From: a virus
Direction: 5' to 3' (one strand)
DNA length: 64,000 nt
IMG/VR virus record: IMGVR_UViG_3300037296_000046
Location: 1 to 64,000 of that record
Below the pieces are notes generated by a model. That model saw nothing but the letters and a program-made list of their open reading frames with translations, was not told the origin of the DNA and searched no databases. The translations under genes and the position numbers were made by a program. Of the stretch, positions 7,343 to 46,602 are shown one piece after another (positions within the stretch are counted from its first letter, which is position 1; the number at the start of each line of letters is the position of its first letter).

Positions 7343-7366
7343 GGAGGGGCTTCGGTCCCTCCTTTC
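7343..7366 (+). terminator. Rho-independent terminator
   Basis: GGAGGGGC-TTCG-GTCCCTCC-TTT. Confidence 0.7.
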
Positions 7367-7507
7367 TACATTCTAGTATGGGACATCCTATTCTAGAGTG
7401 TAGCCCTGAATCTCTCGACAGCTTTCTAATCCTTTGACTGTCTTTGATTTGGTCAGGCGTCTTACCAACGTCTTGGCACACTCGCTTAATTCTGAACCAA
7501 GGAACCA

Positions 7508-8502: not shown

Positions 8503-9063
8503 CCTACTGATCCCCCTATCAAAAAATCTCATGTGCATTTTTGCAATGCAGGTATGCATTTTTAGGGGGATTGACAGACCATTTTGCTCCCCATAGATCA
8601 GTCCCACCGGTACTCAATCCGGCAGGGGGTTTATGCTTGCCACAGGTCTGTTCAGAAACCGATAGCAAAGCTACCTCGAACCAATCAGATACGGTCAGCC
8701 GCCACTCAGGGTCAAACCCCTTCGGTTCTAACGCTTCCATCCTATCGGACGAAGACATCAGAACATTAGCGGCTGAGGCCCGTCTCTCCAAACTCCTCCT
8801 AGAGTTCTCATCCAAACCTCCCCCCTTAACTACATTCCAATGGCAAATCCTATTGAAAGATAAGATTCCATATTGTTAGATAGTAACCCATTAATAGGGT
8901 ATATTATATATATTTAGGGAAGTAGATATTGAAAATGTAACCCATTAGGGGATTTTCATCCATATGTTTCCTAGTAGTATTAACACTCCTAACACTAATA
9001 ACACAACATACCCCCCCGGTATTGTGTCCCTATGACGTACCACTATGCTGCCACCCTAGTCCT
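8503..9063. other. Probable genome-terminus / collapsed terminal-repeat region
   Basis: Long, mostly non-coding, partly AT-rich stretch between right-arm genes and the first early promoter; contains inverted and direct repeats; matches N4 genome architecture. Confidence 0.6.
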
Positions 9064-22205: not shown

Positions 22206-22293
22206 TTTCTACTAGCCCTACAGATAACATCTGCTAGAACCATGGTTCACACATATGGTTCTAGCAACCTCCAAACCCCCCAAGGATAGTAGT

Positions 22294-29435: not shown

Positions 29436-30239
29436 ATGCGCCTTTCATTCATCTCCTACGCTACTGTCGCTATCTTTGCGATTGCAAGCTCTGCCTTCGC
29501 TGCTGATCTGTCCATTGCTACTGGTAAGGAGGGCGGTGGATATGACGCTGCTGCCCGTACTGCTGCTACCAAGCTGGCTCAACGTGGTAATGTCGTGGAA
29601 GTCATCAACCTGAATGGCTCTGACGAAATCACTCTGGCTGTCTGCTCTGGTCGTGCCACTGCTGGTTACACCCAGATTGATGCTATGGATGCTCGTGCCA
29701 AAGAAGGCTGCAACCTGCGTCCACTGTCGAACTATGGTAACGGCGAATATGCTGTGATCCTGTTTCCACCTGACAGTGATCTTGATGCTCTGGATGACCT
29801 GACATCTGCGAACTCTGTGCTGGTCGATACAATCGGCTCTGGTACTTCCCTGTTCTGGGACACCATTGTGCGTATCGAAAAGACTGAAGGCTCTGGTGAT
29901 CCATGGTCTGAAGCCTCTGCTATCAACGATCCCTTGTCTATGGCTGAGCCATTGGCTAACTTCGGTGACATCGACGCTGTGATCATGGTCCGTACAGAGA
30001 CAAGCCCTGACATCGCCAATCTGGTTAGCCGTGGTTGGAAGATGGGTGAACTCTGGGACCGTCAGATTGACGATTACGAATTCAATGGCAAGCCGTTGTA
30101 TGAAGTCAGCAAGAAGGCTTTCACCATCAACAGCCGCAAGACAACTGCCTACACCTACAAGGTGCTCAGCTTTGCTGTGACCACCGAAGCCACGTCCCGT
30201 GACCGCGAACTATTCGCTATGCTCGCAGGGGCCATGTAA
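29436..30239 (+). CDS. Secreted TAXI-family (TRAP transporter) solute-binding-like protein
   Basis: Signal peptide ending AFA; IATG..GG.Y, GS.E...V..G.A..G.TQ.D, GSGT motifs of the TAXI/PBP2 fold. Confidence 0.8.
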   Translation: MRLSFISYATVAIFAIASSAFAADLSIATGKEGGGYDAAARTAATKLAQRGNVVEVINLNGSDEITLAVCSGRATAGYTQIDAMDARAKEGCNLRPLSNYGNGEYAVILFPPDSDLDALDDLTSANSVLVDTIGSGTSLFWDTIVRIEKTEGSGDPWSEASAINDPLSMAEPLANFGDIDAVIMVRTETSPDIANLVSRGWKMGELWDRQIDDYEFNGKPLYEVSKKAFTINSRKTTAYTYKVLSFAVTTEATSRDRELFAMLAGAM

Positions 30240-30277
30240 CTGCCAGAAGATCATACTGCCCTTTGATCTTCCACCTG

Positions 30278-30311
30278 AACCCCTTGGCTCTAGTAGCTAA
30301 GGGGTTTTTTT
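30278..30311 (+). terminator. Rho-independent terminator
   Basis: AACCCCTTGGCT-CTAGT-AGCTAAGGGGTTTTTTT. Confidence 0.8.
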
Positions 30312-32710: not shown

Positions 32711-34237
32711 ATGCCAAAACTAATAATCGTTGCTGCAATTGCCGATGTGGATAACATCGTGCTGTATTGCAAAGACGGTGAAACGCATACTATCAACTCT
32801 GCGGATTACCGTACAAAGGCAATCATGGACAAAGTGATGCCTGCGATCAATAACAACAAATCTGTTGAGATTGAGATTGATGACTACAACCTTCACAACG
32901 AGTTCTCGGAACGTACTGGTGGCCTCATCAAGTTCTACCGTGTGCTCAAGAAGGCAGTCCTTGGTATCTTCGACAAGACACAACCTACTATGTCTGTCGA
33001 GGAAATCGAATCCACTGGAACCACCAAAGATGTCTCTCCTCTCAAGGAAGATGAAACGGTGGTTGCTGTCGTATCTGGTAAGGCTATTCCTAACATGGAA
33101 GCCATGGATCGTCAGATTAACCATGTGGTTAAGAACAACGCCAATCCTGCTGGTATGGTACGTTTCTTGGAACGTGTTGCCTCTGTCATTGATGAACGTG
33201 GTCACTCTGTTGAAGACCTGTTGAAGTTCATCAAAGACGCTGATCTGCCGATTGCAGATGATGGAACCATGGTGGCCTACAAGTCCCTCTCGTCTACGGA
33301 TTCAGACGGTGTCTATGTGGACCTTCATTCCCATAAGGTGAAGCAAGGCGTTGGTACACGGGTCTTTATGAGCGCCAAGCTCGTTGACCCTGATCGCCGC
33401 AATGACTGCTCCAATGGTCTGCACATCGCTCGTCGTGACTACATCCGTACCTTTAGCGGTAATGTCATGGTGATCTGTAAGATTGCACCAGAAGACATCA
33501 TTGCTGTACCTAAGTACAGCCCGTCTAAGATTCGTGTATGTGGTTATGACATCGTGGCACTCTTGGACAAGAAGTCTGAGGGTATTCTGCGTAGCAGCAA
33601 TAAAGCTATGACAGATAACCCTGATGCTGCACAGCTTCTTGGTGAAATCATCGCTGGTCGTCATGCAGCTATCACTAAGACAACTGAGATTACTGCTGCT
33701 TGTGGTGGTGGTCTGATCTACAATGAGATTAAGGGTGAAAGCCAAGTCAAATTTGTGGATGACAAAGCAGAAGTTCAGGAATTGAATGAAGCTAAAAGTA
33801 ATCGTCGCTTTGCTGATATTCCTGAGCCAGAGCCATTGCCTCCTGTAGCTCCTGTGAAGGCGCTCACAGCACTTGAGGTTGACCTGATGGAGAAAGACCC
33901 AACTCTTTCACCGAAGGCTCTCCGTGAGCAGGCTGACGCTATCTTGCTGCAACGCAAAGCAGACAAGGAAGCCAAAGCTAAGGCTAAGAAGGATGCAAAC
34001 CTTCCCAAGCTGGCAAAGACTGAGCCTACCAAGAAAGCAAAGAAGGGTAAGCAAGCTGCTACGACACCTTCCAAGCCTACTGCTGCTACCAAGACGATCC
34101 CTGAACAGGCTCGTGAGTTGTTCATGGCTCAGAAATTCACTGAGTTGAACGACTTCAAAAAGAAGAAAAAGAAAAGCTGGGATTCCCTTGGCTTCTCTGT
34201 CACCGAAGAAAATCAGATCAAAGCCAAGCTCGTCTGA
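32711..34237 (+). CDS. rIIB: rIIB-like protein
   Basis: LPIADDG..VAYK, VDPDRRNDCSNGLH, PEDII.VP.Y...K.RVC.Y; follows rIIA. Confidence 0.9.
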   Translation: MPKLIIVAAIADVDNIVLYCKDGETHTINSADYRTKAIMDKVMPAINNNKSVEIEIDDYNLHNEFSERTGGLIKFYRVLKKAVLGIFDKTQPTMSVEEIESTGTTKDVSPLKEDETVVAVVSGKAIPNMEAMDRQINHVVKNNANPAGMVRFLERVASVIDERGHSVEDLLKFIKDADLPIADDGTMVAYKSLSSTDSDGVYVDLHSHKVKQGVGTRVFMSAKLVDPDRRNDCSNGLHIARRDYIRTFSGNVMVICKIAPEDIIAVPKYSPSKIRVCGYDIVALLDKKSEGILRSSNKAMTDNPDAAQLLGEIIAGRHAAITKTTEITAACGGGLIYNEIKGESQVKFVDDKAEVQELNEAKSNRRFADIPEPEPLPPVAPVKALTALEVDLMEKDPTLSPKALREQADAILLQRKADKEAKAKAKKDANLPKLAKTEPTKKAKKGKQAATTPSKPTAATKTIPEQARELFMAQKFTELNDFKKKKKKSWDSLGFSVTEENQIKAKLV

Positions 34238-34331
34238 TTAGATACCCCATTGCATATTCTGTGCGATGGGGTATTCAACAATTCCCAATTAGTGTTGGCA
34301 ATCATGTCTAACACAATTCAAGGAGAGAACC

Positions 34332-34685
34332 ATGAACGATGTCACTACTGCACCTGCTGCTTCGCCTGTCAGCCTGTCTGACCTGAAAGCTGCTCGTGAC
34401 AAACTGAACGCACGCATTGCTGAAGAAACCAAGACCAACCGCAAGAACACCGTTGCGGAAATCAAAGCTCTGGTCGAAGCCTACGACATCCCACAAGATG
34501 AACTGGTTGCTTCTGTTTTCGGCAAAGCTCGCAAAGCTAAGGGTACGGCTACCAAAGCTGAACCTAAGTATCAGAACCCTGCGGACACTGACCAGACATG
34601 GACCGGTAAGGGCCGTCAACCTGAGTGGTACAAGACTGCCATCGAAGGTGGTCAATCCCCAGAGACGATGCTGATTAGCAAGTAA
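34332..34685 (+). CDS. hns: H-NS family nucleoid-associated protein (HvrA-like)
   Basis: N-terminal coiled-coil oligomerisation region; C-terminal PKYQNP...QTWTGKGRQPEW signature; AAGGAG RBS. Confidence 0.92.
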   Translation: MNDVTTAPAASPVSLSDLKAARDKLNARIAEETKTNRKNTVAEIKALVEAYDIPQDELVASVFGKARKAKGTATKAEPKYQNPADTDQTWTGKGRQPEWYKTAIEGGQSPETMLISK

Positions 34686-34703
34686 GCTGATCACATTACA
34701 TTT

Positions 34704-34737
34704 AAGCCCTCTAGTATTCGTACTAGGGGGCTTTTTT
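34704..34737 (+). terminator. Rho-independent terminator
   Basis: AAGCCCTCTAGTA-TTCG-TACTAGGGGGCTTTTTT. Confidence 0.85.
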
Positions 34738-34789
34738 CGTCTGAGGGTATGGGGTAGGCACTAGCATCCTCCCATATATCGAGAAAAAC

Positions 34790-34981
34790 ATGCCGATAGA
34801 CTTTGCAGACTCAGCCCAAGACCTACAAGAGCTTCTGCTGAAACGGACCCTAGAGAACCAAAGTCAGAAGACCTCTGCTGCCTTTTCTGGCTTCTGCTTA
34901 TCTTGTGAAGAACCAATTGAGAATCGTCGCTTTTGTGATTCAGATTGTCGGGAGGACTTCGAGAATAAGCACAAAAAATAA
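34790..34981 (+). CDS. TraR/DksA-like C4 zinc-finger protein
   Basis: N-terminal DFADSAQ (DxxDxA) helix plus CLSC...RRFCDSDC; upstream of the helicase as in N4-like phages. Confidence 0.7.
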   Translation: MPIDFADSAQDLQELLLKRTLENQSQKTSAAFSGFCLSCEEPIENRRFCDSDCREDFENKHKK

Positions 34982-34996
34982 TTGATTGGAAAACAC

Positions 34997-36295
34997 ATGC
35001 CACTGAACTTAGGGCAGAAAAATGCCTCGACAGAGTGTCTCCAATTCCTACTGTCACCAGATAAAGAGTTTCGTATCGCTGGGCCAGCAGGAGTTGGTAA
35101 GACATTCATGTTGAAATACATCATGAATACATTGATCAAGCAGTACGAACAGACATGTAAACTTCTGGGCATCAAGCCTACTGAGTTTGACATTGCTCTT
35201 ACTGCTACGACCAACAAAGCTGCTGAGGTGCTTGCCACTTCTACAGGATACCCAACCCAAACGATCCATAGCTTTATGAATCTACGGGTATACGACGATT
35301 ACTCTAGCGGAGTATCGAAGTGCAATAAGACCCGTTCATGGCATGTCCATCGTGAGACTATCATCTTCATTGATGAAGCCTCTATGGTAGATGAGAACCT
35401 GTACAAGTTCCTCATGGAAGGTACTGATAAGACATGTAAAATCATCTACATCGGTGATCGTCACCAGTTGGCACCTGTCTTTGAGAAGGTGTCCAAGGTC
35501 TATGCTACTGATCATAACTTGGTCGAATTGACTGAGCCAGTACGCAATGCTGACCAGCCTGCGTTGATGAATCTGTGTGAGCAGTTCCGTGATACGGTTA
35601 AGACAGGGGTGTTTAAACCTATTGTCGAAGTTCCCGGAGTCATTGACTTCATTGATGATACCAAATTGGCTCAAATGTTGGATGTCACTCTGAAGCCTGA
35701 AGATGTGGATGCTCGTATCCTCATGTTCACCAATCAGCGTGTCCATGACTATAACGAATATCTTCGTGAAGTTCGTGGACATGGTAAGATGTTTGCCAAA
35801 GGTGAAATCTTGGTAAACAATGCCTCTGTGGAAATCAGTGACAAGATTCAATTGTCAGTAGAACAGCAATTCTTAGTGCTACAAGCTGACACTGATGTTC
35901 GTGAGATTGTAGTATGCCGTAACGATAGTTCTATCGTAATGGACATCTACAAGATGCGGATCACCCATGCTACAAATCCAAATGGTGAAGGCTTTGATGT
36001 CCGTATCCCATACGACATGGAACACTACAAAAAGCTGATGAACTATTTCAGCAACAACAAGATGTGGCCAGATTTCTACAACCTTAAAAACAACTTTCCT
36101 GATCTACGGATGAAGGATGCCTCGACTGTCTATAAGGCTCAAGGCTCCACCTATGAATTCGTGATCCTAGACCTAACTAACATCGGTCTATGTAAGGATG
36201 CTGAACAAACAGCACGGATGCTCTACGTTGGCGTTTCTCGTCCAACCACACGCATTTTCCTTTACGGCAAGCTACCCCCTAAGTACGCTGGCTGA
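34997..36295 (+). CDS. SF1 (Dda/RecD-like) DNA helicase
   Basis: GPAGVGKT, TIHSF, IDEASM, GD.HQLAPV, TVYKAQGST, LYVGVSR. Confidence 0.92.
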   Translation: MPLNLGQKNASTECLQFLLSPDKEFRIAGPAGVGKTFMLKYIMNTLIKQYEQTCKLLGIKPTEFDIALTATTNKAAEVLATSTGYPTQTIHSFMNLRVYDDYSSGVSKCNKTRSWHVHRETIIFIDEASMVDENLYKFLMEGTDKTCKIIYIGDRHQLAPVFEKVSKVYATDHNLVELTEPVRNADQPALMNLCEQFRDTVKTGVFKPIVEVPGVIDFIDDTKLAQMLDVTLKPEDVDARILMFTNQRVHDYNEYLREVRGHGKMFAKGEILVNNASVEISDKIQLSVEQQFLVLQADTDVREIVVCRNDSSIVMDIYKMRITHATNPNGEGFDVRIPYDMEHYKKLMNYFSNNKMWPDFYNLKNNFPDLRMKDASTVYKAQGSTYEFVILDLTNIGLCKDAEQTARMLYVGVSRPTTRIFLYGKLPPKYAG

Positions 36296-36303
36296 ACAAG
36301 TTT

Positions 36304-36377
36304 GGTTCTATAGCTCAATTGGATAGAGCTTCCGCCTCCTAAGCGGGTCTGTGTGGGTTCGAGTCCTACTAGAACCA
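36304..36377 (+). tRNA. tRNA-Arg(CCU)
   Basis: Acceptor GGTTCTA/TAGAACC, D-arm GCTC-AATTGGATA-GAGC, anticodon loop CT-CCT-AA, T-loop TTCGAGT; followed by CCG (no complete encoded CCA). Confidence 0.92.
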
Positions 36378-36379
36378 CC

Positions 36380-36596: not shown

Positions 36597-37088
36597 ATGC
36601 GGACTTACATCGGCACTAAAATCATCAAAGCCAAACCCATGACACGGGCTGAATACAACACCTATCGTGGGTGGGATTTACCGGAGAATGAAAACGGCGA
36701 TGATGGTGGTTATCTCGTTGAGTACGAAGCAGCACCAAATGTTGAGACAAATCATGTCGATCATGCGGGCTATATTTCGTGGTCCCCAGATTCCGTATTT
36801 GAGGAATCTTATCGTGGTCCGGGAACCATGAACTTCGGCCATGCTTTAGAGATTCTAAAGTCTGGTGGACGCGTCAGCCGTCAAGGTTGGAACGGCAAGA
36901 ACATGTTTATCTTCTTGGTAAACGGTTCAACTTTCACCGTAAATCGTGAGCCACTGCTTTCGATCCTAGGTGAAGGAACAGAGGTCAATTACCACGGCCA
37001 TGTGGATATGAAGACCGCTGACGGCATGATCGTTCCATGGCTCTGCTCGCAAACTGATATGCTTGCAGAAGATTGGGGCATTGCCTGA
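36597..37088 (+). CDS. DUF2829/Tad2-family anti-defence sponge fused to an N-terminal YIGTK...SWSP domain
   Basis: C-half MNFGHAL..LK.G.RV.R.GWNGK.MFI...PW..SQTDMLAEDW (DUF2829); N-half YIGTKIIKA.PM...GYLVEY...YISWSP..VFE.SY; AGGAG RBS. Confidence 0.8.
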   Translation: MRTYIGTKIIKAKPMTRAEYNTYRGWDLPENENGDDGGYLVEYEAAPNVETNHVDHAGYISWSPDSVFEESYRGPGTMNFGHALEILKSGGRVSRQGWNGKNMFIFLVNGSTFTVNREPLLSILGEGTEVNYHGHVDMKTADGMIVPWLCSQTDMLAEDWGIA

Positions 37089-45519: not shown

Positions 45520-45558
45520 ACACTATAGAGAGGCTCTCAGAACGCTGGGAGCCTCTCT

Positions 45559-46602
45559 ATGATTCTGGACCTACCTACCTCTGTTATGGTGTCAAAGAAG
45601 AAGAAATTCTATCTTAACCTTAACCAGTATCGTAATACTCACTTCACTGTATTGAATAATGCTAAGATTGCTTTCAGCAATATAGTGATTAAAAGAGTGC
45701 AAGCTCTGCCATCATATGATGTGATTAAACTTACCTATACACTGTTCCCCAAAACAAGAGCACTCTGTGACGTAGCGAATGTATGTAGTATAGTTGATAA
45801 GTTCTTTTCTGATGTGATGACACACTGTGGTAGAATCCAAGATGACAACTACCTCTTTCTCCCTGAAGTAACCTATCGCTTTGGGGAGATTGATAAAGAG
45901 AACCCTCGTGTCGAAGTTCTAATTGAAAGTTTCAATACCACTATGACACAAATCACCGAAACACCCAAGGAGCCTGATCCAATGCGTACTACGCTTAATG
46001 ATCAAGAAATCAAACTGGCAATTGCCGAGTTTGTTCAGAACCGTTTCAAAGGCACCATCAATGAAGCAGTAGAAATGATCGTCACATCTGACGAGAATGG
46101 CCTGTCTGCTACGATGGAGCTTACCCCTAATGCCATGGAGGGTAATGTAGCTGCCCCTTTGGCTCAATCGGTAGAGTCTGTGGTGCAAACTTCAGCCCCT
46201 ACCCCAAACCCCGTAAAGGCAGAGAAGGCGGATACGAAGCCTACTTCTTCCCCGAAAGCTGAACCAAAGAAGCAGGAGGCTAAACCTACTGTGAAAAGCC
46301 TCTTTGGTAATCAGAAGAACAAGGCAGAAATCAGCGAAAGCAATGATGCTGCCAAGGCTGAAAACGCTGCTGCAAACATCTCTGCTGGGGATGACGTAGA
46401 GCGTGAAGACCCTAAGCAGGTTGAGGCTGAGGCACCTGAGACAGTAGCAGAGGAAGTCACTGAGACATCTGGTGCAACTGCTCAACAGCCCTACGCTGAA
46501 GACGATAACGAGCAAGAGGTGGACCCTGAAGCAGTGATGCAACAGGAAGAAGCCAAAGCTGAACAGCCACGTCCATCCATTTTCGGCTTCGGTAAGAAGT
46601 AA
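45559..46602 (+). CDS. RusA-like Holliday junction resolvase N-domain in frame with a second low-complexity protein
   Basis: LNLNQYRN...DVAN..SIVDKF..D.....G.I.DDN...DKENPRVEV (RusA-like); internal AAGGAG RBS + ATG at 45982. Confidence 0.75.
   Translation: MILDLPTSVMVSKKKKFYLNLNQYRNTHFTVLNNAKIAFSNIVIKRVQALPSYDVIKLTYTLFPKTRALCDVANVCSIVDKFFSDVMTHCGRIQDDNYLFLPEVTYRFGEIDKENPRVEVLIESFNTTMTQITETPKEPDPMRTTLNDQEIKLAIAEFVQNRFKGTINEAVEMIVTSDENGLSATMELTPNAMEGNVAAPLAQSVESVVQTSAPTPNPVKAEKADTKPTSSPKAEPKKQEAKPTVKSLFGNQKNKAEISESNDAAKAENAAANISAGDDVEREDPKQVEAEAPETVAEEVTETSGATAQQPYAEDDNEQEVDPEAVMQQEEAKAEQPRPSIFGFGKK

Follow-up and report, generated by a model that had tools for sequence, protein, structure and literature searches.

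An H-NS family gene in a conserved slot beside the replication genes in a branch of N4-like phages

A full-length H-NS protein was reported in phage EPV1 by Skennerton et al. (2011), who proposed that it silences the CRISPR and restriction genes of the host, so that silencing of defence by a phage H-NS was already on record in 2011 (PMC3097231). A 2020 review named the EPV1 protein as the only phage H-NS and noted that experimental evidence was lacking (PMC7074111), and Pinilla-Redondo et al. (2020) put forward the same silencing idea for mobile elements in general (PMC7648647). The plasmid protein Sfh is a precedent for an H-NS carried on a mobile element. Host silencers themselves target AT-rich incoming DNA, and phages counter them, for example with T7 gp5.5 (PMC3097231). 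Other phages supply a chromatin protein of their own, such as TF1 (HU family) of SPO1, Lsr2 of actinophages and MotB of T4; TF1 acts on phage DNA, and the phage Lsr2 proteins are xenogeneic-silencer homologues found mostly in temperate phages (PMC7074111, PMC7827196). The folds and families of these proteins, however, are unrelated to H-NS. Our literature search returned no paper linking H-NS with Schitoviridae in substance, and the paper on the OLIVR phages, which belong to this family, does not mention their H-NS gene.

Here we analyzed an H-NS family gene in the window, a stretch of 64 kb that forms the first part of a 75,869-bp virus record with direct terminal repeats, estimated to be 100% complete. 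The locus resembles that of EPV1 in that both are metagenome-derived and virulent-looking, both encode a full-length phage H-NS with oligomerisation and DNA-binding parts, and a silencing role has been proposed. EPV1, however, is not N4-like, and its H-NS is 47% identical to that of the presumed host, which was read as a recent capture (PMC3097231), whereas the window's gene keeps its synteny throughout a phage lineage, and a close bacterial donor was not seen. Phage H-NS genes were already known, and what is modestly new here is a complete virulent genome with an intact gene, together with synteny throughout a lineage. We consider it close to an even call that the gene encodes a functional nucleoid protein of the middle phase, inherited vertically in a branch of the N4-like phages and acting mainly on phage DNA.

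The genome encodes a virion RNA polymerase (a 3656-aa ORF matching phrog_2206, E 0) and a DNA polymerase 58% identical to those of E. coli phage N4 and Sinorhizobium phage ort11. An N4-type SSB, a major head protein and a portal were also identified, and no integrase was found in the phage genome. Taken together with the rII genes, these features indicate a virulent N4-like phage of the Schitoviridae, in agreement with the preliminary description, which had called the phage lytic. The genome also falls within the ~70-76 kb of that family, and the giant virion RNA polymerase, the N4-type polymerase, SSB, portal and head, and the terminal repeats are further family marks. A megablast search with the 3.6-kb neighbourhood of the H-NS gene gave no match among cultured phages, and there is no near cultured relative.

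The H-NS gene lies on the plus strand at 34332..34685 and encodes 117 aa plus the stop, with matches to PF00816 (E 2e-14) and phrog_10171 (5.6e-18). The PF00816 (Histone_HNS) match spans residues 78-115 and the full model (positions 1-38 of 38) with 53.5 bits against a cut-off of 25.6, and it was recovered also by a family search of the whole genome. The C-terminal DNA-binding domain is thus encoded at 34563..34676 on the plus strand. Within it, the loop TWTGKGRQP (residues 89-97, nt 34596-34622) fits the family pattern T-W-[TS]-G-x-G-R-x-P, whose AT-hook-like G-R enters the minor groove, and aligns to TWTGQGRTP of H-NS, TWSGRGRQP of Bv3F and SGVGRQP of Ler. A HMMER search, run exhaustively, recovered 3270 homologues (E<=1e-3), the majority 100-130 aa long and aligned over residues ~11-115, whereas a word-indexed protein search returned only 2 matches. 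The closest homologue in the HMMER search was 44% identical; P0003, one of the closest metagenomic homologues, showed 44% identity. In an alignment of 37 homologues, P83, W90, G92, G94, P97 and W99 were invariant and K or R was frequent at position 93; the conserved parts were the N-terminal helix, a short second helix ending in EL, and the motif PKYxNPxDxxQTWTGRGRQPxW. We have very little doubt that this is a genuine H-NS family protein. The size and loop given in the preliminary description were thus borne out, and so was its wording "full-length", as the protein aligns end to end with H-NS proteins of 100-130 aa. An antisense ORF of 128 aa at 34308-34694 had no Pfam match and was taken as spurious.

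An AlphaFold2 model built on the 37-sequence alignment had a mean pLDDT of 88, rising to ~96 over residues 80-110. It showed a helix of 37 residues (15-51), a second helix (55-63), a less ordered linker, and a C-terminal domain made of a beta-hairpin and two helices. The N-terminal helical region (34374..34520, plus strand; pLDDT 90-97) is the predicted oligomerisation domain; it shares homology with the N-terminal halves of short H-NS proteins and with model positions 45-83 of H-NS/StpA. No Pfam or PDB N-domain matched this region, and Foldseek and PDB profile searches with the helix returned coiled-coil noise only, such as apolipoprotein E. The linker KARKAKGTATKAE (34524..34562, plus strand) is basic, with a net charge of +4, and appears flexible, the pLDDT dropping to about 75. 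The C-terminal domain matched the solved domains of Ler, Bv3F, H-NS and StpA in sequence. In Foldseek the top matches were Bv3F (2l92; TM 0.64 on the target, rmsd 1.9 A, 41 columns, probability 0.99) and then Ler (2lev), with E-values of 0.08-0.17 that are weak because the domain is small; viral models gave no Foldseek match.

The best match in structure and sequence for the C-terminal domain was therefore found among the short bacterial H-NS proteins (Burkholderia Bv3F, PDB 2l92; Rhodobacter HvrA/SPB type). These share with the window's protein a length of ~100-120 aa, a long and a short helix, a basic linker and a TW[TS]G[RK]GRQP loop; they differ in being chromosomal, only 30-45% identical and outside any phage context. 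E. coli H-NS and StpA have the same C-terminal domain and central dimerisation region, but their first ~45 model positions, including the N-terminal dimerisation site, are unmatched. The NCBIfam models NF008193 and NF007656 (H-NS/StpA) scored 26.7 and 28.4 bits, far under their equivalog cut-offs of 211 and 202, and aligned from position ~45 only (45-134). An assignment as orthologue of enterobacterial H-NS/StpA was therefore rejected, and the protein is a complete member of the short H-NS type, as in alpha- and betaproteobacteria, judged by its sequence.

It is likely that the protein binds DNA and oligomerises. DNA binding through the AT-hook-like loop and the basic linker is a well-supported prediction, and homology and the single-chain model are consistent with multimerisation via the N-terminal helices. 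The C-terminal domain would insert its TWTGKGRQP loop into the DNA minor groove with the assistance of the linker, and the long and short N-terminal helices would join molecules head to head and tail to tail. Loop insertion and helix joining together would let the protein coat and bridge DNA, so that RNA polymerases would be hindered or blocked.

The start codon is preceded by the Shine-Dalgarno sequence AAGGAG (34320..34325, plus strand), read directly 6 nt before the ATG and among the longest such matches of the genome; the strong ribosome-binding site described earlier was thus confirmed. In codon adaptation index, calculated with the major head, portal and two further structural genes of the phage as reference, the gene ranked 2nd of 60 ORFs, with only the major head gene above it. 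The codons are therefore optimised, as had been claimed, relative to the structural genes of the phage, the reference being phage genes and not those of a host. The GC content (51.7%) and GC3 (50.8%) were inside the range of the other phage genes. Codon use and the ribosome-binding site suggest that the protein is probably made in large amounts, and the codon index fits a protein of which enough is required to coat DNA. The gene stands between rII and the replication genes for helicase and polymerase, the middle class in N4, and from this position it would be expressed together with the middle genes. A search of 33500-35500 gave no sigma-70-like promoter.

Two hairpins flank the gene. The upstream stem-loop (34241..34275, plus strand) begins 3 nt after the rIIB stop codon and has 16 pairs, including two G-U, a 3-nt loop and no T-run; its folding energy was -23.9 kcal/mol (z -7.0), and none of 200 shuffled sequences was equally stable. 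It may be either a weak terminator distal to rIIB or an RNA 3'-end or processing structure, and among the N4-like loci examined a comparable hairpin 5' of the H-NS gene was present only in L003 and L069. Downstream, an intrinsic-terminator-like hairpin with a T-run occupies 34704..34739 on the plus strand (hairpin 34704-34733, 13-bp stem, 4-nt loop, dG -20.1, z -5.7). In 11 of the 12 N4-like loci that were compared, the H-NS gene is followed by a GC-rich hairpin and a T-run, indicating that a transcription unit regularly closes with this gene, immediately ahead of the helicase. In Rfam, neither hairpin reached the threshold of any family. The bracketing noted in the preliminary description was thus real for both elements but is not special to this gene, because strong intergenic hairpins and terminators were found throughout the early and middle region of the genome. 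Other very stable intergenic hairpins that had no T-run were seen at 7366-7403, 22232-22266 and 45524-45561 (dG -19 to -30), and the phage may use hairpins of this kind generally for RNA processing or as 3' ends. A short motif directly 3' of the terminator T-run was also observed (TTTTCGTCTGAGG, TTTTCATCTGAGG, TTTGTCTGG, TTTGCCTGG), at 34734-34750 in the window, at ~6424-6440 in L003, and just past the H-NS terminators of L018, L008 and L051. As a candidate middle promoter, the motif may be where the helicase transcription unit begins.

The H-NS gene is located downstream of rIIA and rIIB and upstream of genes for a DksA-like zinc finger and a Dda-like helicase. The rIIB-like gene (32711..34237, plus strand; phrog_2886 RIIB, E 2.9e-132) is immediately 5' of the H-NS locus. 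The DksA/TraR-like C4 zinc-finger gene (34790..34981, plus strand; phrog_54, 2.7e-13) is the conserved downstream neighbour in the window's clade, and the Dda-like SF1 helicase (34982..36295, plus strand; phrog_325, 1.6e-107; AAA_30 and UvrD_C_2 domains) is the conserved anchor of the slot. A zinc-finger gene of 62-68 aa (phrog_54) separates the H-NS terminator from the helicase in all four members of this clade (window 34790-34981, L003 6488-6676, L163 2649-2936, L170 2780-2986). The L003 copy was 63% identical to the window's, and tblastn did not find the gene in the clade with long-type H-NS. As TraR-like proteins bind RNA polymerase, two putative transcription modulators would stand side by side. 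Directly 3' of the helicase is a tRNA-Arg(CCT) at 36304-36379, followed by a 163-aa protein (36597-37088) with a Tad2-like (anti-Thoeris) domain in its C-terminal half (PF11195, 2.8e-25); accessory and counter-defence genes are thus found within the replication module. A further ORF of 267 aa (29436-30239) lies just 5' of rIIA with a terminator of its own at 30277-30307, and a single-protein scan of 185,579 reference genomes found no close relative of it.

We surveyed the distribution of this arrangement in IMG/VR. Single-protein scans with the H-NS or the helicase gave no match, and alignment-based scans were needed. An alignment-based pattern scan detected 415 viral contigs encoding H-NS relatives, the best 80 of which contained 11 distinct N4-like loci with H-NS directly 5' of a Dda-like helicase. 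The gene order at these loci was H-NS, Dda-like helicase, a gp38-like ORF and DNA polymerase. Among them was Agrobacterium phage OLIVR1, whose gp69 is annotated "H-NS histone family protein"; Ochrobactrum phage ZX86 showed the same arrangement with its H-NS gene annotated as hypothetical. A second, independent survey examined the 80 IMG/VR loci with the most similar helicases (best 80 of 193). Of these, 17 had an H-NS match no more than 850 bp upstream of the helicase and in every case on the helicase strand, 58 had none, including E. coli N4 and ort11, and the remaining 5 were too short to assess. The slot upstream of the helicase is therefore filled in at least 15 distinct N4-like phages, including the cultured OLIVR1-3 and ZX86. 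Cultured carriers of related proteins were few: in a tblastn search of 50,697 cultured phage records, only about 25 matched three phage H-NS queries, including Phaeobacter phage MD18, Burkholderia phage BCSR5 and Ralstonia phage records.

These surveys bear on several points of the preliminary description. It had stated that H-NS is not an N4 core gene, which agrees with the absence from N4, ort11 and 58 of 75 assessable nearby loci. It had placed the gene between rIIB and the zinc-finger/helicase genes as a stand-alone inserted cassette; the position was correct, but the same slot is occupied in at least 15 N4-like phages, and the gene is a lineage-conserved slot gene instead. The wording that the phage "carries its own" H-NS implied a private, recent acquisition, which sits poorly with the occurrence at 17 of 80 N4-like loci in two helicase clades. 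It had described the phage DNA as relatively AT-rich; H-NS-carrying loci range from 39 to 61% GC, with nearly equal means for carriers (51.9%) and non-carriers (51.0%), and a link of carriage to AT-richness was rejected. The candidate roles that it had put forward were that the protein may silence defence islands, as suggested for EPV1 in 2011 (PMC3097231), poison host H-NS, or gate cruciform promoters.

In a tree of the helicases, carriers fell into two clades, the window's clade of five rows (support 100) and a clade of 16 rows with 14 carriers; the remaining 60 rows had no H-NS carrier. Presence and absence of H-NS required 3 changes on this tree, against a mean of 16 for shuffled data. In a tree of 144 H-NS proteins, the window's protein had that of L003 as its partner (support 98), in a group made up of viral sequences only. 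The AU test did not reject a single clade comprising all 11 N4-like H-NS proteins (p-AU 0.80), and the tree constrained to this single origin was 21.6 log-likelihood units better. The survey, the two trees, the AU test and ZX86 together point to an old gene, kept vertically in a sub-lineage of N4-like phages with occasional loss, as far as sequence comparison can tell.

The bacterial sequences in the tree were selected by the motif TWTG[KR]GRQP and are biased to such proteins, so that the tree cannot name a donor. Among the named bacterial matches listed, the closest were mostly from Rhodobacteraceae of the Roseobacter group (35-45% identity, full length), and others came from Moraxellaceae, Rhodocyclales and Massilia. 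The comparison with Rhodobacteraceae HvrA/Spb that the preliminary description had proposed was apt for these matches, whereas the protein itself groups with phages, outside that set. The gene might instead be a recent passenger (moron) of Rhodobacteraceae host origin that contributes little or nothing to infection, as the Roseobacter-group matches and the absence of the gene from most N4-like phages would allow. Against this, identity to any bacterial protein is low, the viral grouping of the window with L003 lies outside the Rhodobacteraceae, and the codon use is like that of the most expressed phage genes. Moreover, helicases of the carrier phages are only 44-51% identical, and yet synteny and terminator are kept. 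We therefore regard a recent passenger as very improbable.

The phage H-NS proteins are of two forms. The short form (105-119 aa) was found in the window, L003, L163 and probably P0007, a contig of 75,969 bp that is probably another N4-like phage. The long form (156-212 aa) was found in OLIVR1, ZX86, L004, L005, L008, L018 and others of the larger clade; it has an N-terminal extension of 70-90 aa, an acidic stretch enriched in Pro, Glu, Asp and Ala with a net charge between -10 and -17; its loop reads WSGRGKEP, and its last helix is shortened. Compared with the window's protein, gp69 of OLIVR1-3 (Schitoviridae, Oliverunavirus) and ZX86_53 share the slot between rIIB and helicase, the terminator that follows and the PF00816 match, but they have 183-212 aa, a disordered acidic extension, a WSGRGKEP-type loop and a shortened C-terminal helix, with about 31% identity. 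The extension was observed in L001 5764-6315 (OLIVR1 gp69), L244 4156-4794 (ZX86_53), L004, L005, L008, L018, L051 and L069, and a short motif, L-T-x-R-L-x-F-D ... I-P-x-F-L-K-K, is conserved within it. The extension may serve as an autoinhibitory tail or mimic DNA.

Variation of the loop was also observed. L163 (2232-2549) and L170 (2434-2601) have GKGDAP/GKGEAP in place of GKGRQP, the minor-groove Arg being replaced by an acidic residue. In L163 the 105-aa ORF is intact and still above the Pfam threshold despite Asp for Arg. In L170 (2390-2604; IMGVR_UViG_3300048582_000136), H-NS is reduced to a C-terminal frame of 56 aa that lacks an ATG and is preceded by a stop codon; the translation of the adjacent frame resembles that of a tRNA fragment (MAHPTGFEPVT...), although ARAGORN found no tRNA there, and the gene may be decayed, broken by a tRNA-like insertion.

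Such variants raise the alternative that the protein is an anti-silencer or decoy, which would compete or co-oligomerise with the host xenogeneic silencer on phage DNA and so keep phage genes transcribable, in the manner of Ler, H-NST or T7 gp5.5. The replacement of the DNA-contacting Arg by Asp in L163, with the N-terminal helix and frame kept, hints at a function carried in part by protein-protein contacts. Within the window's clade, the N-terminal domain is 24-35% identical and the C-terminal domain 47-71%, and this faster N-terminal divergence would be expected if the protein tracked different host partners. The hosts of OLIVR1 and ZX86, however, are reported to rely on MucR-type silencers and not on H-NS, which would preclude co-oligomerisation there. 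The window's protein retains all DNA-binding residues, and the L170 copy looks decayed, so the loss of Arg may simply mean lost function. Although phages are known to counter host silencers (T7 gp5.5, PMC3097231), we consider a decoy unlikely.

A different target would be the host genome. The phage H-NS could coat AT-rich host loci such as defence islands, CRISPR-cas and restriction-modification genes, or act on host transcription generally, and either weaken host defences or free host RNA polymerase for phage late genes. The DNA-binding part and the predicted oligomerisation part are intact, as this would require, and accessory or anti-defence genes (rIIA/B, the Tad2-like gene and the tRNA) surround the gene. 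As a middle gene by position, however, H-NS would act after defence proteins exist, and silencing at the level of transcription takes long compared with a lytic cycle. The kept synteny and the unrejected single origin are also unlike the patchy turnover of counter-defence genes. The genomes of Agrobacterium and Ochrobactrum, the hosts of cultured carriers, are GC-rich, so that phage DNA (44-49% GC) would be the preferred substrate in these hosts. Silencing of the host has been proposed for EPV1 and for plasmid-borne H-NS (PMC3097231, PMC7648647); for the present gene we judge it a possible reading that falls well short of an even chance, and it ranks above the decoy.

We suggest that the protein would act mainly on the replicating DNA of the phage itself, as a phage chromatin protein that sets the timing of transcription, occupies phage DNA in place of host silencers, or both. 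This target was ranked first, ahead of host silencing and then of a decoy or dominant-negative role, with a recent passenger considered unlikely. The ranking was made because the gene appears to be retained vertically across deeply diverged phages, in a fixed slot that closes the rII unit and adjoins the replication genes, because its codon use is like that of the capsid genes, and because its expression, in the middle phase by position, would come too late for existing defence proteins. Several observations speak against it. The genome is even in GC (46.4%, sd 4.8%) with a single clear AT-rich island at 8821-9000, and carriage of H-NS is uncorrelated with phage GC. Coating could interfere with late phage transcription, which host RNA polymerase carries out, the gene is missing from most N4-like phages, and the nearby Tad2-like anti-defence gene would allow a counter-defence role. 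Phage DNA as the main target is thus the best single candidate, held with somewhat less than even confidence. A bolder form of this proposal, which we advance only tentatively, is that in one branch of the N4-like phages H-NS is a semi-core viral chromatin protein, passed on vertically and made in capsid-like amounts, that coats replicating phage DNA and helps to time the hand-over between the three RNA polymerases of the N4 programme or shields the DNA from a host silencer. The protein has two structural forms, short and long, and in the long one the acidic tail may gate DNA binding.

A conserved, syntenic H-NS in a branch of the Schitoviridae that includes cultured Agrobacterium and Ochrobactrum phages makes the role of such a silencer in a lytic phage testable. 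Its long-term conservation argues for a role built into the infection programme and not for an expendable accessory of an arms race. If the semi-core reading is true, a xenogeneic silencer would have been turned to self-regulation by a virulent virus.
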